Assembly: GCA_963827855.1 (NCBI GenBank)
Contig: CAWHBY010000001.1
Span: forward strand, 133,799 to 197,798
Source of the DNA: an uncultured Phycisphaerae bacterium
GTDB taxonomy: Bacteria; Planctomycetota; Phycisphaerae; Sedimentisphaerales; Anaerobacaceae
Reading direction: 5' to 3'
Length of the DNA: 64,000 nt
Part shown: in pieces, positions 45,710-54,615 of the stretch
How positions within the stretch are numbered: position 1 is the first letter of the stretch
How the letters are laid out: each line of letters starts with the position of its first letter
The notes under the pieces: generated by a model
Told to the model about the DNA's origin: nothing
What the model saw: only the letters and a program-made list of their open reading frames with translations
Database searches by the model: none
Program-made: the position numbers and the translations under genes

Positions 45710-47344
45710 TTATTTTGGGGGCCTCCCGGATCGCCATTCATGCAGCATGCGCTTGAGGCGATGCAGGATGCCGTCACTCGCCAGTTCCGTCGGAGCCGTC
45801 ACAGAGGCACGCAGCTTCTCCAGCGATTCGGCATTCTCCTTGGCGCGGGCGGCTGCCAAGTCCGAGAGCATCTGCGGGATCTCTTCCCGGAGCGACAGCA
45901 GGCGAGCGAAGGCGTCCCGGTTGAATTCGAGCAGCTCGCAGTCCGTTGTGGCCGTCATGGTCGCGCTCCTCGGCAAACCGGTCAGGAGGCTCATCTCGCC
46001 GAAAAGCGAGCCGGGTTGCAGGTCGAATTCAACGTCACGAGCGGTATCGGAGTTCATAATCCGGCCATGCACCTTTCCCTGGACCAGGACGTAGAATGAC
46101 TCTCCTTCGTCCTGTTGGCGCATCAAGGTTTCACCTCGCGTGAACCGGGTGCGTTTCACGTCCCTGGCCACTGCCTTCAGCTCGTCGCGGCTGAGCATGC
46201 AGACGCCGTCGGGGCCGGCCATGAGTTTGTGCCCGAAGTCGCTGTGCAGCAGATCGTCCACAATGCGTTCGATCTCCGTCGCCAGGGGCCTCTCGAATCG
46301 CTGGGCATGAACCGCCTGCATGAAGTTGTCGAGCATACGGCCGCTCATGGGGAATGGGATCTCGATCCCGCGGCGGGTGAACTTGTACCAGATCATCCGC
46401 ATCACATGACCTTCGATCGGCGTGCGATGCTCGTACTGCTTCGACCAGAACCGAAGCACATAGTCGATACAGAAGTCCTTAAAGCCCGTTACGTAGGCGT
46501 CTGGTTCCGGGTGCTTCTCGACTGCCGGCACGCTGTCTGCGGCCTCCAGCAGGGCGGCGATGACGTCGCCCGGTGCATCTCCGTAGCTGGCCGACACCGG
46601 TACCTCGTGCCGACGCAGGGGGGTGGGCGACGAGAAATTGCGGAGGATCGTGTCTGCGAGCTTGCCGTTGGGGACAATCACCACGTGTCCGCCGGTCGTG
46701 CGCAGCCGCGTCTCACGCCAATTGACCAGAATCACCTGCCCGATCGTTCCGTCCACGTCGATCCAGTCGCCCACCGACATGGATCGGCTCGTGTGAAGGG
46801 ACATGCCCGCCAGCAGATTACCCAACACCCCTTGCATGGCGAAACCGATGACGCCGGTCACAATTGCGGTCGAGGTGAGCAGGACGCTGATTTCCTGGTC
46901 GAGGTGGTACCGGATCAGCAGGAAGGCAACGCCCAGCATGATCGCCAGGCGGAGCAGACCACGGGTTAGACGACTGAGCGGACAGGCCCGCCCCATGTGC
47001 GAAAAACCCTCGACCAACAGCCCTTCAGCAAGCCTTACGATGGCATAGGCGGCCCAGAACAGCAGCCATGCTTCATGGTATCGCGACCAGCCTCCAGGCT
47101 CTGCGGAGCGGAGGAGCCAGGTGATCAGCGGCAAGGAAAGCACCAGCACCAGTGCGGAGAATCCGATGTAGCTCAGCAACACGCCGACAAACTGCCCGCC
47201 GGATCGCCGCACCGACTCGACGCCGTCGGAGGGGCGGTATCGGCGGTGGAGCGGGATCGCCAGCAGATAGGCCACAAGCAGCACCACTGCGGCCAATGCG
47301 ATGTTCTGGATATAAGGCACTCCCGTTTCCAGCCATTTCAGCAT
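45710..47344 (-). CDS. MscS-family channel with a C-terminal cyclic-nucleotide-binding domain (bCNG-type)
   Basis: Multi-TM N-terminus. MscS core (GDWIDVDGTIGQVILVNWRETRLRTTGGHVVIVPNGKLADTILRNFS). C-terminal cNMP-binding motifs (FTRGETLMRQQDEGESFYVLVQG..LFGEMSLLTGLPRSATMTA). Confidence 0.8.
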   Translation of the reverse strand: MLKWLETGVPYIQNIALAAVVLLVAYLLAIPLHRRYRPSDGVESVRRSGGQFVGVLLSYIGFSALVLVLSLPLITWLLRSAEPGGWSRYHEAWLLFWAAYAIVRLAEGLLVEGFSHMGRACPLSRLTRGLLRLAIMLGVAFLLIRYHLDQEISVLLTSTAIVTGVIGFAMQGVLGNLLAGMSLHTSRSMSVGDWIDVDGTIGQVILVNWRETRLRTTGGHVVIVPNGKLADTILRNFSSPTPLRRHEVPVSASYGDAPGDVIAALLEAADSVPAVEKHPEPDAYVTGFKDFCIDYVLRFWSKQYEHRTPIEGHVMRMIWYKFTRRGIEIPFPMSGRMLDNFMQAVHAQRFERPLATEIERIVDDLLHSDFGHKLMAGPDGVCMLSRDELKAVARDVKRTRFTRGETLMRQQDEGESFYVLVQGKVHGRIMNSDTARDVEFDLQPGSLFGEMSLLTGLPRSATMTATTDCELLEFNRDAFARLLSLREEIPQMLSDLAAARAKENAESLEKLRASVTAPTELASDGILHRLKRMLHEWRSGRPPK

Positions 47345-47389
47345 GATCGCACCTTTCGTTCGTACGCCGTCGGCTTGGCCACGTGTCCC

Positions 47390-48232
47390 CTATCCGCCGA
47401 TCGTCCACCCTTGCCCCGCCCGCACGAGCACGGCGTAAGAGGAGCGTGTCTTCACTTGCCGTTCCAGGGCACGCAAGGCCTTGTCGTCCGCTTCCGGGGC
47501 ATGGTGTCCCAGGAGCACCTGCTTGACGCCTGCCGACTCGGCAATCTCCAGGCCGTCCTCCCAGCACGTATGCCCCCACCCTGCAAAGCCCTCCTGGCTG
47601 GCCCTGGCGAAGTGCGCGTCGATGATGAGCATATCGGCGGGTCTCGGTTCGCAGCAGATCGCCATGAACGCCGTCTCGTACGCCGCGGTCCGATTTCGCC
47701 ACTCCAGATCTGTGGCGAACACGAGCGAAGCACCGCTGTTGGGGTCATCGATACGATAGGCCAGGCATCCCCCGGGATGCGGCACTGGACAGCCTTTCAC
47801 CCGCAAGGTCCCCACCTGGACGGGTTCCGTTGCGAACTCGGCAAACTCGAGCCGTGCGCCCATCCGCTCCCAGGACACCGGCCAGTACGGCGGCGCGAGC
47901 AGTCGCGTCACTGCATCGCGAACCCCCCCGTCGGCAAGGGTCGGCCCGACGAACCTGAAAGACCAGTCCGGCCTGTGGAACAGGGGATTCATCGTCAGCC
48001 CGGCCACGTGGTCCAGATGGTAATGTGAGAAGAGCACGGTCACCTCACCCGGCCCTCCTGCCGCCAATTGTGCGGCGACGGCATGCATGCCGGTTCCGGC
48101 ATCCAGCACCAGTCGTTCGCCTCGCGATCCGACGAGGAGCAGCGACGTCGTATCACCGCCAAATTCCTCGAAGGCCCCGCCGGTGCACGGCCGGCTCCCT
48201 CGCATCCCGCCAAAGAAGAGCCGCATGCTCAT
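47390..48232 (-). CDS. MBL-fold metallo-hydrolase, translationally coupled to the cyclase gene
   Basis: Start trimmed to ATG 48232, which overlaps the cyclase stop (ATGA). HxHxDH motif FSHYHLDHVAG. Downstream PHPGG, DLEW and LGHH motifs. Confidence 0.75.
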   Translation of the reverse strand: MSMRLFFGGMRGSRPCTGGAFEEFGGDTTSLLLVGSRGERLVLDAGTGMHAVAAQLAAGGPGEVTVLFSHYHLDHVAGLTMNPLFHRPDWSFRFVGPTLADGGVRDAVTRLLAPPYWPVSWERMGARLEFAEFATEPVQVGTLRVKGCPVPHPGGCLAYRIDDPNSGASLVFATDLEWRNRTAAYETAFMAICCEPRPADMLIIDAHFARASQEGFAGWGHTCWEDGLEIAESAGVKQVLLGHHAPEADDKALRALERQVKTRSSYAVLVRAGQGWTIGG

Positions 48233-50346
48233 TTCTCCGTCAGCCCCCATACCCCGTCCCACGACGCAGGAGGATGGGCACATAGTTGGGCGCAACGCTG
48301 GACATAGTGCTGTGCTGCCGGATCGTCAGGCAGTTGCTGGAAGGCCTCCATCGCACCGGCGAAACGGCCTTCGCGGAAATGGACCAGGCCAGCGGCGAAC
48401 GCCTCCCAACCGGCGGGCACGGGATCCGTGGCGAATCCCGTCAGTTCATAAACCTCCACGGCGGTCTTCCTGCCCACCACACGCAGGTCCGCCAGTTTGC
48501 GGCCGAGGAACTCGGAGGACACCAGGCGCCACGTACTCCCGGACACCATGGTCTCTGTGCCGAAGGCCTTGTTGGCACCCTCCAGGCGGGACGCCAGGTT
48601 TGCCGCATCCCCCAGAATCGTGTAGTTGAAGCGTTTTCGGGATCCCATATTGCCCACCACGACCTCACCGGTGTTGATCCCCACCCTCATCCGCATCGCG
48701 GCCCCCGTGCGTTTCAGGTAGGCCTCTCGAAGTTCGGCCAACCGTCGTTGACACCGCAACACCGCGCGGCAGGCACGCACGGCATGATCCGGCTGCTCCA
48801 GCGGCGCGTTCCAGAACGCAATGATTGCATCGCCCTCGTATTTGTCAAGCGTACCGCCCTCATCCAGGATGATGTCCGTCATCTCGCTGAGGTAGTCGTT
48901 GAGCAGGGCCGTCAGCTCGACGGGGCCCAGCCTCTCTGAGAACGTCGAGAATCCCGCCAGATCCGTGAACAGGATAGTCAGTTCGCGTTTCTCCCCGCCG
49001 AGTTGGAGGTGCTTAGGATCGAGGAGGATCTTCTCGATCACCTCACCACTCAAGTAGTGCCGGAAGGCCTGTTTGATGAATGCCTTCTGGCGTCCCTCCG
49101 TCCAGTAGTTTGCGGCCAGCGCGCCGACCATGCCCAGCGCCGAGGCGCTCGCTTGGGCGACGACCGGCCACCATTGTCCTTTGCCGTAGGCGGCAAACCC
49201 GATGACGATCGGCGCCGCCAGCCAAGCGAGGGCCAGCGGCCCCGCCTGCCACCATTTGCCCCCATAGGTCAGGGATAGCGATGCGGCGATGGCTGCCGCC
49301 ATCACGCCCAGAATCACCATCGATGTCGGCGCATCGGCGATAAAGGAGTCCGTGAGTAGGTTGTCTACGAACGTCGTGTGCAGGACGACGCCGGGACATT
49401 TGGGATTGACCGGGATCGGTCGCAGGTCCAGCAAACCCGGCGCGCTATACCCGACAAAGACGTAGCAGTCTTTGAAGATCTCCGGAGATAGGGGGGCTTT
49501 GTCGCCGTCGCGCAGTCGTAGCTCGGACTGGATGACCGACGCGGCAGAAACCGCTTCCGGCAGACCATCGCGACCCCGGAATCGCAGGATCGCCTTGCCG
49601 TGCCGGTCGAGAGCCACGATCTTGTCCCCCACGCGCAGTTCCCTGCCCGAACCCGTGATGGATGCGGATTCCGCACGCGCAGTCAGCCACGCCGCCAACC
49701 CGAGCGTTGGGACCGAGATCCCGTCAAAACGGCAAAAGGGTGAGATCCGGCGAAATACGCCATCGGCATCGGGCGAGCCGGCGACGTGTCCCACAGCCGC
49801 CGCGCCGGCGGCCACGTCCTGAACCGGGAACAGCAGCCTGACTTCTTCCGCCATGGCGGGCAAGTCGATCTTCAGGTTCGGATGTGGCATATAGTCCGGC
49901 CATGCCTTCCGGTCCCCGCCCGGCATGACCGCCAGGACCGCTGGGGTACCGGCCTTCAATGCCTGTCCCATGGCCTCGTCGTCCGGGACTCCACGCCCAG
50001 AGGGCTCGGTGAAGAGCACGTCAATGGAAAGGACCCGGGCACCGCCTCTCGCACAGAACGCCGGGATCGCGCCATACACCTCCCGGGGCCACGGCCAGCC
50101 CCAATCAGGATTCTCGCGTTGCGCCCAATCCAGACTGTTCTGGTCCACCAAGATCAGTTTGACCTTTGGGGAGGGGATCTCTCGCTGCGAAAAGAACCTG
50201 GCTCGCCACGTCCAGGTCGGGGCCTCCCAGGATTCGAGCCAGCCCAGGTGCCACACGAGCAATGCCATCACTGCGGCGACCAGGCCGATCCCCGTGCCGC
50301 GCACCCACTTGCCGCCGAAAAGCGTTCGGAAACCCGTTGTGGCCAT
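48229..50346 (-). CDS. CHASE2-domain class III adenylate/guanylate cyclase
   Basis: TM1 GIGLVAAVMALLVW, then a periplasmic region of about 300 aa (KLILVDQNSLDW..VLSIDVLF), a three-TM block, and the cyclase core ELTILFTDLAGFSTFSERL..YEGDAIIAFWNAP..RVGINTGEVVVGNMGS..YTILGDAANLASRLEG. Confidence 0.85.
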   Translation of the reverse strand: MATTGFRTLFGGKWVRGTGIGLVAAVMALLVWHLGWLESWEAPTWTWRARFFSQREIPSPKVKLILVDQNSLDWAQRENPDWGWPWPREVYGAIPAFCARGGARVLSIDVLFTEPSGRGVPDDEAMGQALKAGTPAVLAVMPGGDRKAWPDYMPHPNLKIDLPAMAEEVRLLFPVQDVAAGAAAVGHVAGSPDADGVFRRISPFCRFDGISVPTLGLAAWLTARAESASITGSGRELRVGDKIVALDRHGKAILRFRGRDGLPEAVSAASVIQSELRLRDGDKAPLSPEIFKDCYVFVGYSAPGLLDLRPIPVNPKCPGVVLHTTFVDNLLTDSFIADAPTSMVILGVMAAAIAASLSLTYGGKWWQAGPLALAWLAAPIVIGFAAYGKGQWWPVVAQASASALGMVGALAANYWTEGRQKAFIKQAFRHYLSGEVIEKILLDPKHLQLGGEKRELTILFTDLAGFSTFSERLGPVELTALLNDYLSEMTDIILDEGGTLDKYEGDAIIAFWNAPLEQPDHAVRACRAVLRCQRRLAELREAYLKRTGAAMRMRVGINTGEVVVGNMGSRKRFNYTILGDAANLASRLEGANKAFGTETMVSGSTWRLVSSEFLGRKLADLRVVGRKTAVEVYELTGFATDPVPAGWEAFAAGLVHFREGRFAGAMEAFQQLPDDPAAQHYVQRCAQLCAHPPASWDGVWGLTEK

Positions 50347-50370
50347 GCCGTCCTTCCGCCTTGGGGGACT

Positions 50371-51297
50371 CTACCTGCCGGCTACGATCGGCCGCATGGC
50401 CGCAGCAAAGCGTTGCTGCCTGACGGTATCAGGGGTTGACTCGGCTTCCTTGATCACGGTGCGAAGCGCGTCAATGCGGCTCTGTGCTGACGGATGTGTC
50501 TTGGCGAATCCGAGCCCTCCCGCATCGGTCAGCCGCGTATTCATGCGCTGCAACATGGTGATGATCGCCGCCGCCGGGTAGCCGGCACGCCGCAGCAGTT
50601 GCACTGCAGCGGCATCCGCATCGCGTTCCTGGGTCCGCGAGTAGCCGCTGGTCGTGAGGGTCATCACCACGTCGCCCACCGATCCCTCGAACTCGCGGGT
50701 CAACGACGCCAGCTCCTCGCCGCCCAACTGCTTGGCGGACTCCGCCGCGACCACCGTGAACGCCTCGGTCAGACGTCCCTGCTGGATTGCACTGAGTCCG
50801 TGCTTCTTCTCAACGTGACAGATCTCGTGCGCCAGCACCGCTGCCAGCTCGTCCTCGTTCTCGCAACACCGCAACATCCCACGGGTCACCAGGATCAGGC
50901 CGCCCGGCGCGGCAAACGCATTGATCTCGTCGGAGTCCAGCATCAGAAAATGGTAGCCGCCAAACGTCTCGGGCCGATCGGAGAAGATCGCCAACGACTG
51001 ACCGAGTAGATTCAGATAGGCATTCGCCTGGGGCCGATCCAGGGGCGGGTAGGTCTGAAACACCCGCGCCGCCACGGCACGCCCGATGTAGTACTCCTGT
51101 TCCGGCGTCAGATCCTGCCACGTCTTGCCAATGGCCTTCGCGCCTCGGGTGATCGAGTCTGCCTGGCTGCTGGATATCATTCCGGTCCCCTGTGCGACCT
51201 GAGAGCCCATCTCGGTGACTGTCTCGCAACCGGAGAACAGCATCGCTGCGCACAAGCCCGATACCAGTAGGGTCCAGAGTGCGGGTCTCTCGTTCAT
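50371..51297 (-). CDS. M48-family zinc metallopeptidase, probable lipoprotein
   Basis: Leader ..LCAAMLFSGC. HEICHVEKKH (HExxH). NAFAAPGGLILVTRGML. Downstream ERDAD motif. The start overlaps the upstream stop (ATGA). Confidence 0.85.
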   Translation of the reverse strand: MNERPALWTLLVSGLCAAMLFSGCETVTEMGSQVAQGTGMISSSQADSITRGAKAIGKTWQDLTPEQEYYIGRAVAARVFQTYPPLDRPQANAYLNLLGQSLAIFSDRPETFGGYHFLMLDSDEINAFAAPGGLILVTRGMLRCCENEDELAAVLAHEICHVEKKHGLSAIQQGRLTEAFTVVAAESAKQLGGEELASLTREFEGSVGDVVMTLTTSGYSRTQERDADAAAVQLLRRAGYPAAAIITMLQRMNTRLTDAGGLGFAKTHPSAQSRIDALRTVIKEAESTPDTVRQQRFAAAMRPIVAGR

Positions 51298-51758
51298 TGG
51301 ACACCTCCAGCCAGATGGCCTTGTGCGCGGAATTGCTCAATCCGGTCGGCAGCGGTGTTAAATGCCGCCATGCGGTCCACCCAGGTGTAATCAAGCTTCC
51401 CGTCCTTCCTGAGCTTGGCCTCGACCTGCTCGTTGAAGCCCTTGCCTGCAAGGGCGACTTCATCGGACGAGACACCGGTGGCCGTGTCCGTGGCGCCTGC
51501 CCGCATGGCGATCGGCTTCTTGGAGAGTGCCGACTCGTGGAGCCAGCCTGTCTTGCCGTCGGCCGTGGTCACCGGGTACCAGCCGTTTTGGATCGCCCCG
51601 GCTTCAACGGCTGCGCCGTACGCCACCGTGGCGACGACACGGCCCAACTGCGAAGGAGTCGCCCGCACCTTGCCATCTCGTACCTGAATGCTCATCTGCG
51701 CCGCGAATGCCACGCCTGCCGAGAACGCAAGCAGTGCCAACACAACCTTGATCCTCAT
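51294..51758 (-). CDS. Secreted SH3b-domain protein
   Basis: Start trimmed to ATG 51758 (MRIKVVLALLAFSAGVAFA). SH3_3-like segment VRDGKVRATPSQLGRVVATVAYGAAVEAGAIQNGWYPVTTADGKTGWLHESAL. Confidence 0.65.
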   Translation of the reverse strand: MRIKVVLALLAFSAGVAFAAQMSIQVRDGKVRATPSQLGRVVATVAYGAAVEAGAIQNGWYPVTTADGKTGWLHESALSKKPIAMRAGATDTATGVSSDEVALAGKGFNEQVEAKLRKDGKLDYTWVDRMAAFNTAADRIEQFRAQGHLAGGVQ

Positions 51759-51911
51759 GACATCGGCCTCCCGTGAAAGCGTATTCCATTCCCGGTGTCC
51801 GAAGCCCAAGACGTGCATCGGACAGCACCGGATGCCATGCTATCCGGTACTGCCCCGAAAGCAAGCTCGCCGCCCTCAATTTGCGACGGCCTGCACTGTG
51901 AGATTATCTCT

Positions 51912-53030
51912 TCACCAGGCTCTCCCATGGCTACGGCCGGTGTTACAGCCACCCACATTCTGCAACTCGGCCGGGTCGGCTGAGAACCACTTGCCCTTGA
52001 GCCACAGGCTCACGTTCACCAGACCGATGAGCACGGGCACCTCCACCAGCGGGCCGATGACCGCGGCAAATGCCGCCCCATGGTTGATGCCGAATACACC
52101 CACCGCTACCGCGATGGCCAGCTCGAAGTTGTTGCTCGCGGCTGTGAAGGACAGCGTGGCCGACTTGGCGTAGTTGGCCCCGGCCTTCTTGCCCATCCAG
52201 AAACTCACCAGGAACATGACCACGAAGTAGATCAACAGCGGGATGGCGATTCGCACGACGTCCAGCGGTTTGGCGATGATCTTCTGACCCTGCATGGAGA
52301 ACATGACCACGATGGTGAACAGAAGGGCTATCAGGGTGATGGGGCTGATCTTTGGAATGAACCGCCCGTGATACCACTCCTTGCCCTTGGTCTTGACCAG
52401 GACGAGCCGAGTGAGCATGCCGACCAGGAACGGGATGCCGAGGTAGATGAAGACGCTCCTCGCAATCTCGCCGACGGTGATCTTCGATGTGTCGGCGCCC
52501 TGGAAGCCAAGCAGGGGCGGGAGCACCGTGATGAACAGATAGGCGTATACGCTGTAGAAGAGCACCTGGAATATGGAGTTGAAGGCCACCAGGCCCGCGC
52601 AGTACTCGGTGTCGCCCTTGGCGAGGTCATTCCACACGATGACCATGGCAATACAACGGGCCAGGCCGATCATGATCAGGCCGATCATGAACTCAGGCTG
52701 GCCCCTGAGGAACAACACGGCCAGAACGAACATCAGTATGGGGCCGATGATCCAGTTTTGCACGAGGCTCAGGCCCAGCACCCGCCAGTTGCGGAAGACG
52801 TCGCCCAGTTCTTCGTACTTGACCTTGGCCAGGGGCGGATACATCATGAGGATCAGCCCGAGGGCAATTGGAATGCTGGTCTGTGTCCCTTCCGGGCGGA
52901 GGGAGCCGATCCAATTACCGACTGCCGGGGCAGAATAGCCCATCACCACACCGACGGCCATCGCCAGGAAGATCCACAACGTCAAGAACCGGTCCAGAAA
53001 TGAAAGCCTCTTTGCGATTCCTTCGCTCAT
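51912..53030 (-). CDS. acr3: ACR3-family arsenite efflux transporter
   Basis: Start trimmed to ATG 53030 ([24 protein letters not shown]). Motifs [27 protein letters not shown] and [11 protein letters not shown]. Confidence 0.9.
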
Positions 53031-53043
53031 AGACAGACTCCTG

Positions 53044-54615
53044 TCACGAGTGCTTCGTTGCGCTTCGACCAAAGCAACAAGCCGGGGTATCCTGTACTGG
53101 CGAATCCAACAGGCCTTTCGCAAAGTCCTTCATGGCGGACATAGAGCCCTTCTCAACCTGATGACCGACGTTCACAGCCTCGCGGATATCCTGGTCGTCG
53201 ATCCCCATCTCCTGGGCCTTGCCCAGATGGTACTTCAGGCAGGGCTGGCAGTGGGCCGTGACCGATGCACCCAAGGCAATCAGCTCCTTGAGCCTGGGCG
53301 CAAGCGTCTGGCCCGGCTTGACCGCCGAGATGCTCAGACTTGTCACGAAGTCACTGGGCTTCGTGCCCGCCGGGACCTTGGCAGCGATATCGCGGTACAG
53401 GGGATCTGACCATGAGGCCATGCTGTCCACGTAGTTGGCCTTGGCCTCAAACATCGCATCAGCCAGGCCTGCGGCCTCGACCATGGCCTTGGTCTCATCC
53501 ACGAGTACTGCCCCGGCCACGCACCCGATCAGGGCCTGTACGGACTGGCGGATCTCTTCAGGCAGGGACCGCAGCAGGGCAAGGTCCGACACGGCCACCC
53601 GGCCACCCGGCCTGAGCACCCTGGCGATCTCCCGCCAGACCTGGGCCTTGTCGGGCGAGAGGTTGATTACGCAGTTCGAGATCACCACGTCCACACTGGC
53701 GTCCGCCACAGGCAGGTGCTCTATCTCTCCGAGCCTGAACTCGACATTGGCAAGCCCCGTCTTTTGCCGAAAGACCTCGATCCCGGCCCTTGCCTTGGTT
53801 ACCATGTCGGCTGTCATGTCTACGCCGATAGCGAGGCCCTTGGCCCCTACCTTCTTGGCTGCGACGAATACGTCCAAGCCTGCCCCAGCCCCAAGGTCCA
53901 GGACCACCTCGCCCTCACGGAGGGATGCCAAGGCGGTCGGGTTGCCGCAGGACAGGCCCATGTTCGCACCTTCCGGGAGGTCCTTTAGATCGGCCTGATC
54001 GTATCCGACGGCCTCTGTCACAGAAGCGGCTGTCGGACCACCGCAACAGGACGACGGCCCGCAGCACGAGCCACCCTGCTGGGCGATCTTGCCGTATTCC
54101 TGGCGTACCACGCTCCGCACGTCCTTATCCGTGCCACCTGTACTCATACTTGAGCCTCCATTCGTTGATGTCTCTGTCGAGAGGTTCTCCGGCATGCCCT
54201 GGACAAAGGCTCGGATCTGGTCTCTGACCCGGCGATAGCAGTCCAGTGCCTCCTTTTCGGTCTTGGCCTGGGCAGCCAGTCTGGGCGGGTCATCGAAACC
54301 GACGTGGATGACCTTCGTCCTGCCTGGAAAGAACGGGCACTGTTCATGCGCGTTGTCACAGACCGTGACGACATAGTCGAAGGGGATGCCCTTCAGTTCG
54401 TCCACGTGCTTGGACCGCTGGCCGGAGATATCCACGCCGGCTTCGGCCGTGACCTTGACGGCCCTGGGGTCGAGGCCATGCGGGTCGATCCCCGCCGAAT
54501 AGGGCTCAATCACGTCGCCTTTGAGGTGCCGGGTCCAGCCCTCGGCCATCTGGCTCCGGCAGGAATTGCCCGTGCACAAGAACAAGATCTTCAGCCTTTT
54601 CGTTGGTTGCAGCAC
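53044..54615 (-). CDS. Triple fusion: thioredoxin-coupled ArsC (LMW-PTP type), ArsM As(III) SAM-methyltransferase, and a CMD/AhpD-like domain
   Basis: aa 8-145: [30 protein letters not shown]. aa ~160-440: [55 protein letters not shown]. aa ~445-523: [20 protein letters not shown]. Confidence 0.85.

Follow-up and report, generated by a model that had tools for sequence, protein, structure and literature searches.

The window analysed here is a stretch of 64,000 nucleotides from an uncultured Phycisphaerae bacterium (GenBank assembly GCA_963827855.1, contig CAWHBY010000001.1, positions 133,799 to 197,798 of the forward strand). Between its positions 45,710 and 51,758 lie five minus-strand genes, which comprise a receptor cyclase with a CHASE2 sensor domain, two genes for exported proteins before it, and genes for a hydrolase and a channel after it. 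The channel carries a domain that binds cyclic nucleotide monophosphates (cNMPs). From 5' to 3' on their own strand, the genes are:

51294-51758, minus strand: secreted SH3b protein, 154 amino acids (Pfam SH3_3 2.8e-09, SH3_4 4.1e-08)
50371-51297, minus strand: M48 zinc-metalloprotease lipoprotein, 308 amino acids (Pfam Peptidase_M48, PF01435, 4e-33)
48229-50346, minus strand: CHASE2 receptor cyclase, 705 amino acids (Pfam CHASE2 1.6e-41, Guanylate_cyc 1.9e-20)
47390-48232, minus strand: candidate phosphodiesterase of the metallo-beta-lactamase (MBL) fold, 280 amino acids (Pfam Lactamase_B_2, PF12706, 2.5e-12)
45710-47344, minus strand: MscS-cNMP channel, 544 amino acids (Pfam MS_channel_2nd, MS_channel_3rd and cNMP_binding, the last at 1.9e-20)

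The genes are closely packed. The SH3 gene has an ATG start preceded by a GGGAGG ribosome-binding site, and its stop codon overlaps the M48 start by 4 nucleotides (CAATGA). A gap of 24 nucleotides containing a GGAAGGA ribosome-binding site separates the M48 and cyclase genes, the cyclase stop again overlaps the MBL start by 4 nucleotides (AAATGA), and 45 nucleotides lie between the MBL and channel genes. Open reading frames (ORFs), Pfam matches and the junctions as read from the sequence all bear out the initial annotation in its account of the five minus-strand genes, their domains and the four junctions (ATGA, 24 nucleotides, ATGA, 45 nucleotides). A hydropathy scan found N-terminal signal-type segments in the SH3 and M48 proteins and five hydrophobic segments in the channel, and no hydrophobic segment in the MBL protein. 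By this topology, the SH3 protein, the M48 protein and the CHASE2 domain are periplasmic and the MBL protein is cytosolic.

The cyclase consists of a first transmembrane helix, a CHASE2 domain (residues ~38-335), a transmembrane bundle, a class IIIb cyclase domain (~450-635) and a short TPR-like tail, with hydrophobic segments at residues 19-37, 335-353 and 368-386. The CHASE2 match (PF05226) scores 143 bits against a cut-off of 26.3, and we assign the domain to the extracytoplasmic side because it lies between the N-terminal helix and the bundle. Across the window protein and 79 orthologues, D462, K502, D506, N583 and R587 are invariant, while T576 is found in 79 of the 80 sequences and is replaced by Ser in one. 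These residues supply the two metal-binding Asp, the transition-state Asn and Arg, and the substrate-specifying Lys, with Thr in the place of Asp. Lys and Thr at the specificity positions are the pattern of class IIIb adenylate cyclases, which are specific for ATP. The protein is thus predicted to be a class IIIb adenylate cyclase with cyclic AMP (cAMP) as its product. Synthesis of cAMP or cGMP had been proposed for it from the sequence; cAMP is the predicted messenger, and cGMP is rejected because of the conserved Lys/Thr pair.

The MBL protein carries the sequence SHYHLDH, which fits the motif [T/S]HxHxDH. Its set of metal ligands (H70, H72, D74, H75, H152, D175, H221 and H243) is invariant in 27 sequences, which also share the protein's own motifs GGxRGS, PxWP, ATDxEW and GWGHS. 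In Foldseek, the AlphaFold2 (AF2) model (pLDDT 94.8) has B. subtilis YhfI (6kns) as its top match; ranked after it are RNase Z, enzymes of the PhnP family, an MBL protein from Brucella with bound AMP/GMP, yeast PDE1 and Apyc1. A profile search agrees with these neighbours. The paper identifying Rv1339 groups Rv1339, YhfI and CpdA as "atypical class-II" cAMP phosphodiesterases, defined by PF12706 together with [T/S]HxHxDH (PMC9293780). Judged by Pfam family, motif and predicted fold, the MBL protein fits this group, and it probably destroys cAMP. The suggestion that the MBL hydrolase serves cAMP turnover is to this extent supported. It shares PF12706 and the [T/S]HxHxDH motif with the group's members from M. 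tuberculosis (Rv1339), B. subtilis (YhfI) and C. glutamicum (CpdA), but it is only ~20% identical to YhfI, has its own motifs and overlaps the gene of a receptor cyclase. The typical class-II phosphodiesterases (PF02112; yeast PDE1, Vibrio CpdP) were considered and rejected, as no PF02112 match was found at E <= 0.01; yeast PDE1 (4ojv) is no more than a remote neighbour in profile and fold.

The channel matches PF00924 (1.7e-16), PF21082 (9.3e-12) and PF00027 (1.9e-20). Residues 117-334 align to MscS/YnaI, and residues 386-485 align to the cNMP-binding domains of regulatory subunits of protein kinase A (PKA), including the FGE...PR[AS]AT cassette; the segment FGEMSLLTGLPRSAT aligns to the cassettes of PKA regulatory subunits. 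In 25 orthologues, G449, E450, R459 and A461 of the FGE...PRSA cassette are invariant, as is the pore-helix motif GFAxQGVLGNLLxGxSL. On alignment, the phosphate-binding cassette of the cNMP domain is therefore intact, in agreement with the channel's first description as cNMP-binding. By its MscS-type pore helix, cytoplasmic beta and alpha-beta domains and cNMP-binding domain, the protein classifies by sequence with the bCNG family, the bacterial cyclic-nucleotide-gated MscS homologues, whose description is dated to 2010 through the papers cited in a recent review (Caldwell et al. 2010, Malcolm et al. 2012, cited in PMC13591265). That 2026 review still lists the physiological role and structure of bCNG channels as unknown (PMC13591265). 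Described bCNG channels are mostly cyanobacterial (PMC13591265), whereas the window channel belongs to a conserved, operon-like unit with its own cyclase and candidate phosphodiesterase.

The SH3 protein is laid out as a signal peptide, an SH3b domain (~22-78), a disordered linker (~86-103) that is variable in sequence, and a small tail of four helices. An alignment of 32 orthologues shows R32, W60, G71, W72, E100, A104, G105, G107, F108, E113, F143 and G147 to be invariant, together with the tail motif E-x-ALAGKGF-x3-VE. In the AF2 model, pLDDT is ~90 for the SH3 domain, below 50 for the linker and ~75 for the tail. The SH3 domain resembles the SH3b domains of cell-wall hydrolases in Foldseek; the tail was unmatched by Foldseek, and no Pfam family was found for it. 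The matches listed in a homologue search with the SH3 protein were all at least 71% identical. A profile of the SH3-tail protein found 378 proteins at E <= 1e-30 (representatives of 50%-identity clusters), some with multiple SH3 repeats; the 150 matches listed were mostly single-domain proteins of 150-220 amino acids, matched end to end.

The M48 protein has the lipobox LFSGC, with Cys24 in 62 of 64 orthologues. H157, E158, H161, E224 and D228 are invariant in all 64, which gives the HExxH motif and a third ligand Glu in ExxAD. The nearest NCBIfam models are BepA (96 bits, cut-off 570) and LoiP (60 bits, cut-off 365), both below cut-off, and the nearest solved structures are a Geobacter protein (3c37) and BepA (6sar/6ait). 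A Pfam scan found no TPR domain. By sequence, the protein classifies as a periplasmic protease of the BepA/LoiP/YcaL type, below equivalog-level identity to BepA or LoiP.

We determined how widely this arrangement is shared from a cyclase search with one genome per species, which gave 579 matches, of which the best 80 loci were kept. All five window proteins were compared with these 80 loci by tblastn. Loci were scored only where the contig reaches far enough, and genes were counted when adjoining and co-directional. The related loci are mostly contigs of metagenome-assembled genomes (MAGs), and gene calls in them are simple calls by a per-locus codon-usage score. Planctomycetota relatives, which are MAGs of Sedimentisphaerales type, have 65-82% cyclase identity; relatives at 44-52% identity belong to Verrucomicrobiota, Kiritimatiellota, Lentisphaerota, Desulfobacterota, Fibrobacterota, Gemmatimonadota and a few Pseudomonadota. 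Over all loci, the trio of SH3, M48 and CHASE2 cyclase genes was found in 62 of 70 (at least six phyla), the MBL gene in 37 of 66 and the channel in 24 of 54. By phylum, the counts were:

Planctomycetota: trio 22/22, MBL gene 21/22, channel 17/18
Desulfobacterota: trio 20/22, MBL gene 0/23, channel 0/22
Verrucomicrobiota: trio 11/12, MBL gene 9/12, channel 4/9
Kiritimatiellota: trio 4/5, MBL gene 5/5, channel 2/2
Lentisphaerota: trio 2/2, MBL gene 0/1, channel 0/1
Gemmatimonadota: trio 1/1, MBL gene 1/1, channel 1/1

The linkage first noticed in a single genome is thus conserved in many relatives from several phyla. Dozens of loci in other phyla repeat the gene order and strand, which puts the arrangement far beyond chance. 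The gene overlaps are also kept, that of cyclase and MBL genes in 23 of 23 Planctomycetota loci and that of SH3 and M48 genes in 14 of 16 loci. The flanks vary between related loci: the window's flanking genes (ars and mtnA) are absent at all of them, except for an mtnA ~5 kb downstream in one (L079). As the flanks are not shared, we set the edges of the unit at the SH3 gene and the channel gene.

In the cyclase tree, the five-gene loci fill one half, made up of a Sedimentisphaerales clade, a Verrucomicrobiota/Kiritimatiellota clade, a pair of Fibrobacterota and Gemmatimonadota, and loci L045 and L048. The Desulfobacterota on the tree have the trio alone. Together, the adjacency counts and the tree identify a three-gene sensor as the core, and the phosphodiesterase and the channel as an output set added in some lineages. 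The MBL gene adjoins the trio cyclase in four phyla. Where a contig extends far enough downstream, every channel gene is accompanied by the MBL gene, except for a fragment in one delta-type MAG. There, a 283-amino-acid ORF (L031:10396-11247) lies 245 nucleotides past the cyclase and corresponds to the C-terminal half of a bCNG channel, with the MscS C-terminal domain and the cNMP-binding domain and without the pore. This ORF may be a remnant, or it may bind cAMP as a soluble protein. Where the trio is absent, the genes upstream of the cyclase are, by eye, unrelated ones (e.g. RecN-like, MurA-like, GspF-like).

The SH3 protein is paired with this cyclase one to one. Each of 16 genomes of other lineages contains exactly one full-length SH3-tail protein, and in 16 of 16 its gene lies ~1 kb upstream of one CHASE2 ORF of ~700-800 amino acids. 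Twelve further CHASE2 paralogues in these 16 genomes have no SH3-tail neighbour. This pairing indicates that the SH3-M48 pair is dedicated to this cyclase subfamily and not to CHASE2 domains generally. Among the 21 nearest genomes, of the same genus, family or order, a CHASE2 domain, a full-length SH3-tail protein and a cNMP-binding ORF of ~545 amino acids are found only in the source genome of the window (G000) and the congeneric G002.

In 16 loci of Verrucomicrobiota, Kiritimatiellota and Lentisphaerota, the region directly upstream of the SH3 gene encodes, in the same orientation, MlaE, a degenerate MlaF-like ABC ATPase and an MlaD/MCE protein (L025, L027, L029, L035, L037, L041, L042, L044, L045, L048, L049, L051, L052, L058, L059 and L075). 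A gene of ~310 amino acids lies between the Mla set and the SH3 gene; it is TPR-like in L059, the one scanned. The Mla set stands beside the SH3-M48 pair even in L044, where the cyclase is separated. This position ties the sensor to envelope-lipid upkeep in those lineages, and the Mla set may extend the module.

We next looked at which other proteins could read the cyclic nucleotide, using PF00027 matches as a census. In the source genome (6.18 Mb, 94.5% complete), this cyclase is the only CHASE2 protein and the channel is the only PF00027 match; cyclase domains occur twice. The second cyclase domain belongs to an ORF of 414 amino acids (contig C2:3470066-3471310) with a cytosolic class III domain and a TPR-like tail; it is divergent and has Asp in place of the transition-state Asn (VDIAAR). 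Six of 12 other five-gene genomes tested also contain exactly one PF00027 match (G021, G022, G023, G025, G028 and G030). In G021, a 7.5-Mb genome, the single match is on a 7.5-Mb record titled chromosome. The remaining five-gene genomes have 2-5 matches, and G031 has one, in an ORF of 181 amino acids. Trio-only Desulfobacterota have 9, 12, 16, 11, 8 and 14 matches in six of seven genomes tested. The trio-only Syntrophaceae genome G042 (L063) has a single match, located at C79:16513-16770 in an ORF of 540 amino acids, with the trio on C70; this ORF may be an unlinked bCNG channel. With the window channel as the sole cNMP-binding protein detected in its genome, a specific upstream signal can be assigned to it. 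The view of the locus as a self-contained circuit is strengthened in this respect, both in the source genome and in half of the other five-gene genomes.

Taken together, these results make it probable, with some room for doubt, that the five genes form one closed cAMP signalling circuit with a conserved sensor core and an added output set. In the core, formed by the secreted SH3b-tail protein, the M48 lipoprotein and the adenylate cyclase, the input would be received by the periplasmic CHASE2 domain. The SH3 and M48 proteins would set the state of this domain, most likely by regulated proteolysis; for example, M48 might cleave or remove the SH3 protein at its linker or ALAGKGF tail upon envelope disturbance. 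The cyclase, with its Asp/Asp, Lys/Thr and Asn/Arg set, is predicted to then make cAMP. The MBL enzyme, whose gene is translationally coupled to that of the cyclase, would hydrolyse cAMP and so reset the signal, a prediction based on its family, motif, fold and position. The sole reader of the signal would be the MscS-type channel, whose gating would change when cAMP binds its C-terminal domain. If the channel is the only reader, the output would be an altered flux of ions or osmolytes across the inner membrane, not transcription. From bCNG precedent, cAMP more likely opens than closes the channel. In trio-only lineages such as the Desulfobacterota, where other cAMP receptors are numerous, this sensor presumably acts on a broader regulon.

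Several observations weigh against a closed circuit. The Desulfobacterota have the trio without the MBL gene (0/23 loci) or the channel (0/22), so the five genes are not an obligate unit. In G035 (L059), the MBL gene lies next to the cyclase and zero PF00027 matches were detected. The PF00027 census is a fast first-pass filter for this fold only and is blind to other receptor folds such as GAF. The source genome holds the second, divergent cyclase-domain ORF. We infer co-transcription of the five genes from spacing and conservation alone, and a pattern scan found no sigma-70-like site in the spacer 5' of the SH3 gene. The hairpin past the channel gene is not distinctive, since its fold energy of -20 kcal/mol has z = -0.97 against shuffles. 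For the MBL protein, the best NCBIfam model is NF041851, a cyclic nucleotide-degrading phosphodiesterase (4.4e-12), but the match reaches 45.9 bits against an equivalog cut-off of 400. By sequence, it is thus a distant relative of NF041851 and no equivalog. Given this score and the RNase Z- and PhnP-type fold neighbours, its substrate could be another phosphodiester.

The last point leads to the alternative that survives best. The MBL protein might act on another phosphodiester, for instance as an enzyme resembling RNase Z or PhnP or with 2',3'-cyclic nucleotides as substrates, or it might play a non-catalytic part alongside the cyclase, with cAMP removed for example by export or dilution. Besides the score below the NF041851 cut-off and the lack of a PF02112 match, its RNase Z/ElaC, PhnP-family, PqqB and arylsulfatase neighbours at similar scores would suit this. 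On the other hand, its top NCBIfam match is a cNMP phosphodiesterase model, and its top fold match, YhfI, is the structural representative of the atypical class-II group, whose motif and Pfam family it fits. The MBL gene's position also argues for cAMP as substrate: it is translationally coupled to the cyclase by the 4-nucleotide overlap in every one of the 23 Planctomycetota loci, it lies beside this cyclase in four phyla, and the channel is never without it among evaluable loci. We therefore consider a different substrate or a non-catalytic role unlikely, while leaving it an appreciable chance.

A second alternative is that two or three independent units lie side by side, namely an SH3-M48 pair for quality control like BepA, LoiP and YcaL, a cyclase-MBL pair, and a channel acting as an osmotic valve with a regulatory appendage. 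BepA- and LoiP-type M48 lipoproteins are housekeeping proteases of the envelope, and the nearest models and structures of the M48 protein are BepA and LoiP. The trio without MBL gene and channel in Desulfobacterota agrees with such a composition, as do two loci (L044 and L053) in which the SH3-M48 pair lies ~3 kb from the cyclase with two opposite-strand genes between. The trio can thus be split; in both loci the MBL gene is still 3' of the cyclase, in L044 as a fragment only. Independent units do not explain, however, why the trio adjoins in 62 of 70 loci, spread over at least six phyla, with conserved 4-nucleotide overlaps, nor why the one SH3-tail protein of each genome tested always adjoins this cyclase and none of the 12 other CHASE2 paralogues. 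The parts were also gained and lost jointly among the 21 relatives, and the channel is the sole cNMP-binding protein detected in the source genome and in six of 12 other five-gene genomes. One-to-one pairing and joint gain and loss contradict the side-by-side arrangement, which we regard as quite improbable. The genes downstream of the trio in Desulfobacterota were inspected by eye for a substitute effector, and only unrelated housekeeping genes were seen (RecJ-like, PBP1A-like, acyl-CoA synthetase-like, HisG-like and QueF-like).

Least convincing is an anti-phage abortive infection system like Pycsar, in which a cyclic nucleotide made on attack lets a cNMP-binding effector collapse the membrane. 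In its favour, the PADLOC models for PycC hit the cyclase domain (3.4e-33), and those for PycTIR and effectors hit the cNMP domain of the channel (6e-11). The fold neighbours of the MBL protein include Apyc1, an MBL-fold cNMP phosphodiesterase from phage, and the module is patchy among close relatives. Against it, the PADLOC matches cover shared generic domains only, and the cyclase has a periplasmic CHASE2 receptor and the adenine-type Lys/Thr pair. The periplasmic partners are dedicated and, in the Verrucomicrobiota, Kiritimatiellota and Lentisphaerota, adjoin an Mla-like lipid transporter. A phosphodiesterase within the module speaks for a signal that can be reversed; the neighbours are genes for arsenic resistance and methionine salvage and not for defence, and a single copy per genome follows a deep, largely lineage-consistent phylogeny. 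We consider defence very improbable. The locus also differs from the Pycsar two-gene unit of cytosolic pyrimidine cyclase and cNMP effector in having five genes, a CHASE2 membrane receptor and a candidate phosphodiesterase.

Returning to the closed circuit, its proposed control by regulated proteolysis follows a precedent from Sinorhizobium meliloti. In this species, the M48 lipoprotein JspA, which has a LysM domain, and LppA lower the level of the periplasmic inhibitor ExoR, which controls the sensor kinase ExoS (PMC10659215). Both systems include an M48 lipoprotein, a domain of peptidoglycan-binding type and a small extracytoplasmic partner, and in JspA-LppA-ExoR-ExoS/ChvI a membrane sensor is controlled via the level of a periplasmic regulator. 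They differ in that JspA carries LysM in the same chain, whereas the SH3b protein here is separate, and in that ExoS is a histidine kinase and not a CHASE2 cyclase; JspA is likened to the M48 protein by description, not by sequence. CHASE2 cyclases are also present in S. meliloti (CyaD1, CyaD2 and CyaK), where a protein signal, plant uL2, is relayed via the outer-membrane protein NsrA (PMC13001267). Compared by description, these likewise have CHASE2 fused to a class III cyclase and an extracytoplasmic accessory protein, but the accessory is the beta-barrel NsrA there and an SH3b-tail protein with an M48 lipoprotein here. The reader in S. meliloti is the CRP-type regulator Clr, as against a channel in the window. 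E. coli CpxA/CpxP/DegP follows the same logic, as an inner-membrane sensor there changes its activity when a periplasmic accessory protein is proteolysed, but its protein families are unrelated and its output is phosphorylation in place of cAMP.

A more specific and speculative version can be formulated, which we think unlikely to hold in full. In it, the SH3b-tail protein, made by the cell itself and associated with the cell wall, would serve this CHASE2 subfamily as a pro-ligand or an inhibitor. Upon damage to the wall or outer membrane it would be cut by the dedicated M48 lipoprotein, either in the disordered linker or in the ALAGKGF tail, and the product read by CHASE2, and a pulse of cAMP would open the channel and release turgor or change the membrane potential before the membrane is stretched. 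If true, this would be a chemically triggered version of a mechanosensitive safety valve. A CHASE2 domain would thereby gain a ligand logic, and bCNG channels a physiological role, in each case for the first time.

The module is real and conserved, with known families throughout and new wiring. A full-text literature search for CHASE2 linked with M48 or SH3 partners, or for bCNG channels with a dedicated cyclase, found no description, and the five-gene combination, which had been put forward as undescribed, was not found as a unit either. CHASE2 domains are widespread extracytoplasmic sensors, and to our knowledge the S. meliloti case is the only one in which the signal has been identified. 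In the loci studied here, one CHASE2 cyclase subfamily is paired strictly one-to-one with two dedicated periplasmic partners. In some lineages, the same cyclase appears to be wired to a bCNG channel, beside which no other cNMP-binding protein was detected. The system is small, portable and genetically closed, and it offers leads both on the input of CHASE2 domains and on the purpose of bCNG channels. The SH3-tail family itself is still unnamed despite its 378 profile matches, and its tail falls in no Pfam family found.

Two non-coding features border the five genes:

51759-51911, minus strand: spacer of 153 nucleotides between acr3 and the SH3 gene, presumed promoter region of the module
45676-45707, minus strand: GC-rich hairpin of 13 pairs, starting 3 nucleotides past the channel stop codon

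The pattern scan called the hairpin a terminator on the plus strand only, where no gene ends. As no U tract follows it, it is not a canonical minus-strand terminator, and it may be a transcript end or a stabiliser. An anomaly of composition or a recent island was also considered and ruled out, as the GC content of the module is 0.58-0.65 compared with 0.58-0.66 across 40-58 kb. The genes on either side are unrelated to the module. Upstream lie acr3, which encodes an ACR3 arsenite carrier (51912-53123), and an ArsC-ArsM-CMD fusion (53044-54615); mtnA lies downstream. The ArsC part of the fusion is of the low-molecular-weight protein tyrosine phosphatase (LMW-PTP) type, and the long ORFs of the fusion and of ACR3 overlap.

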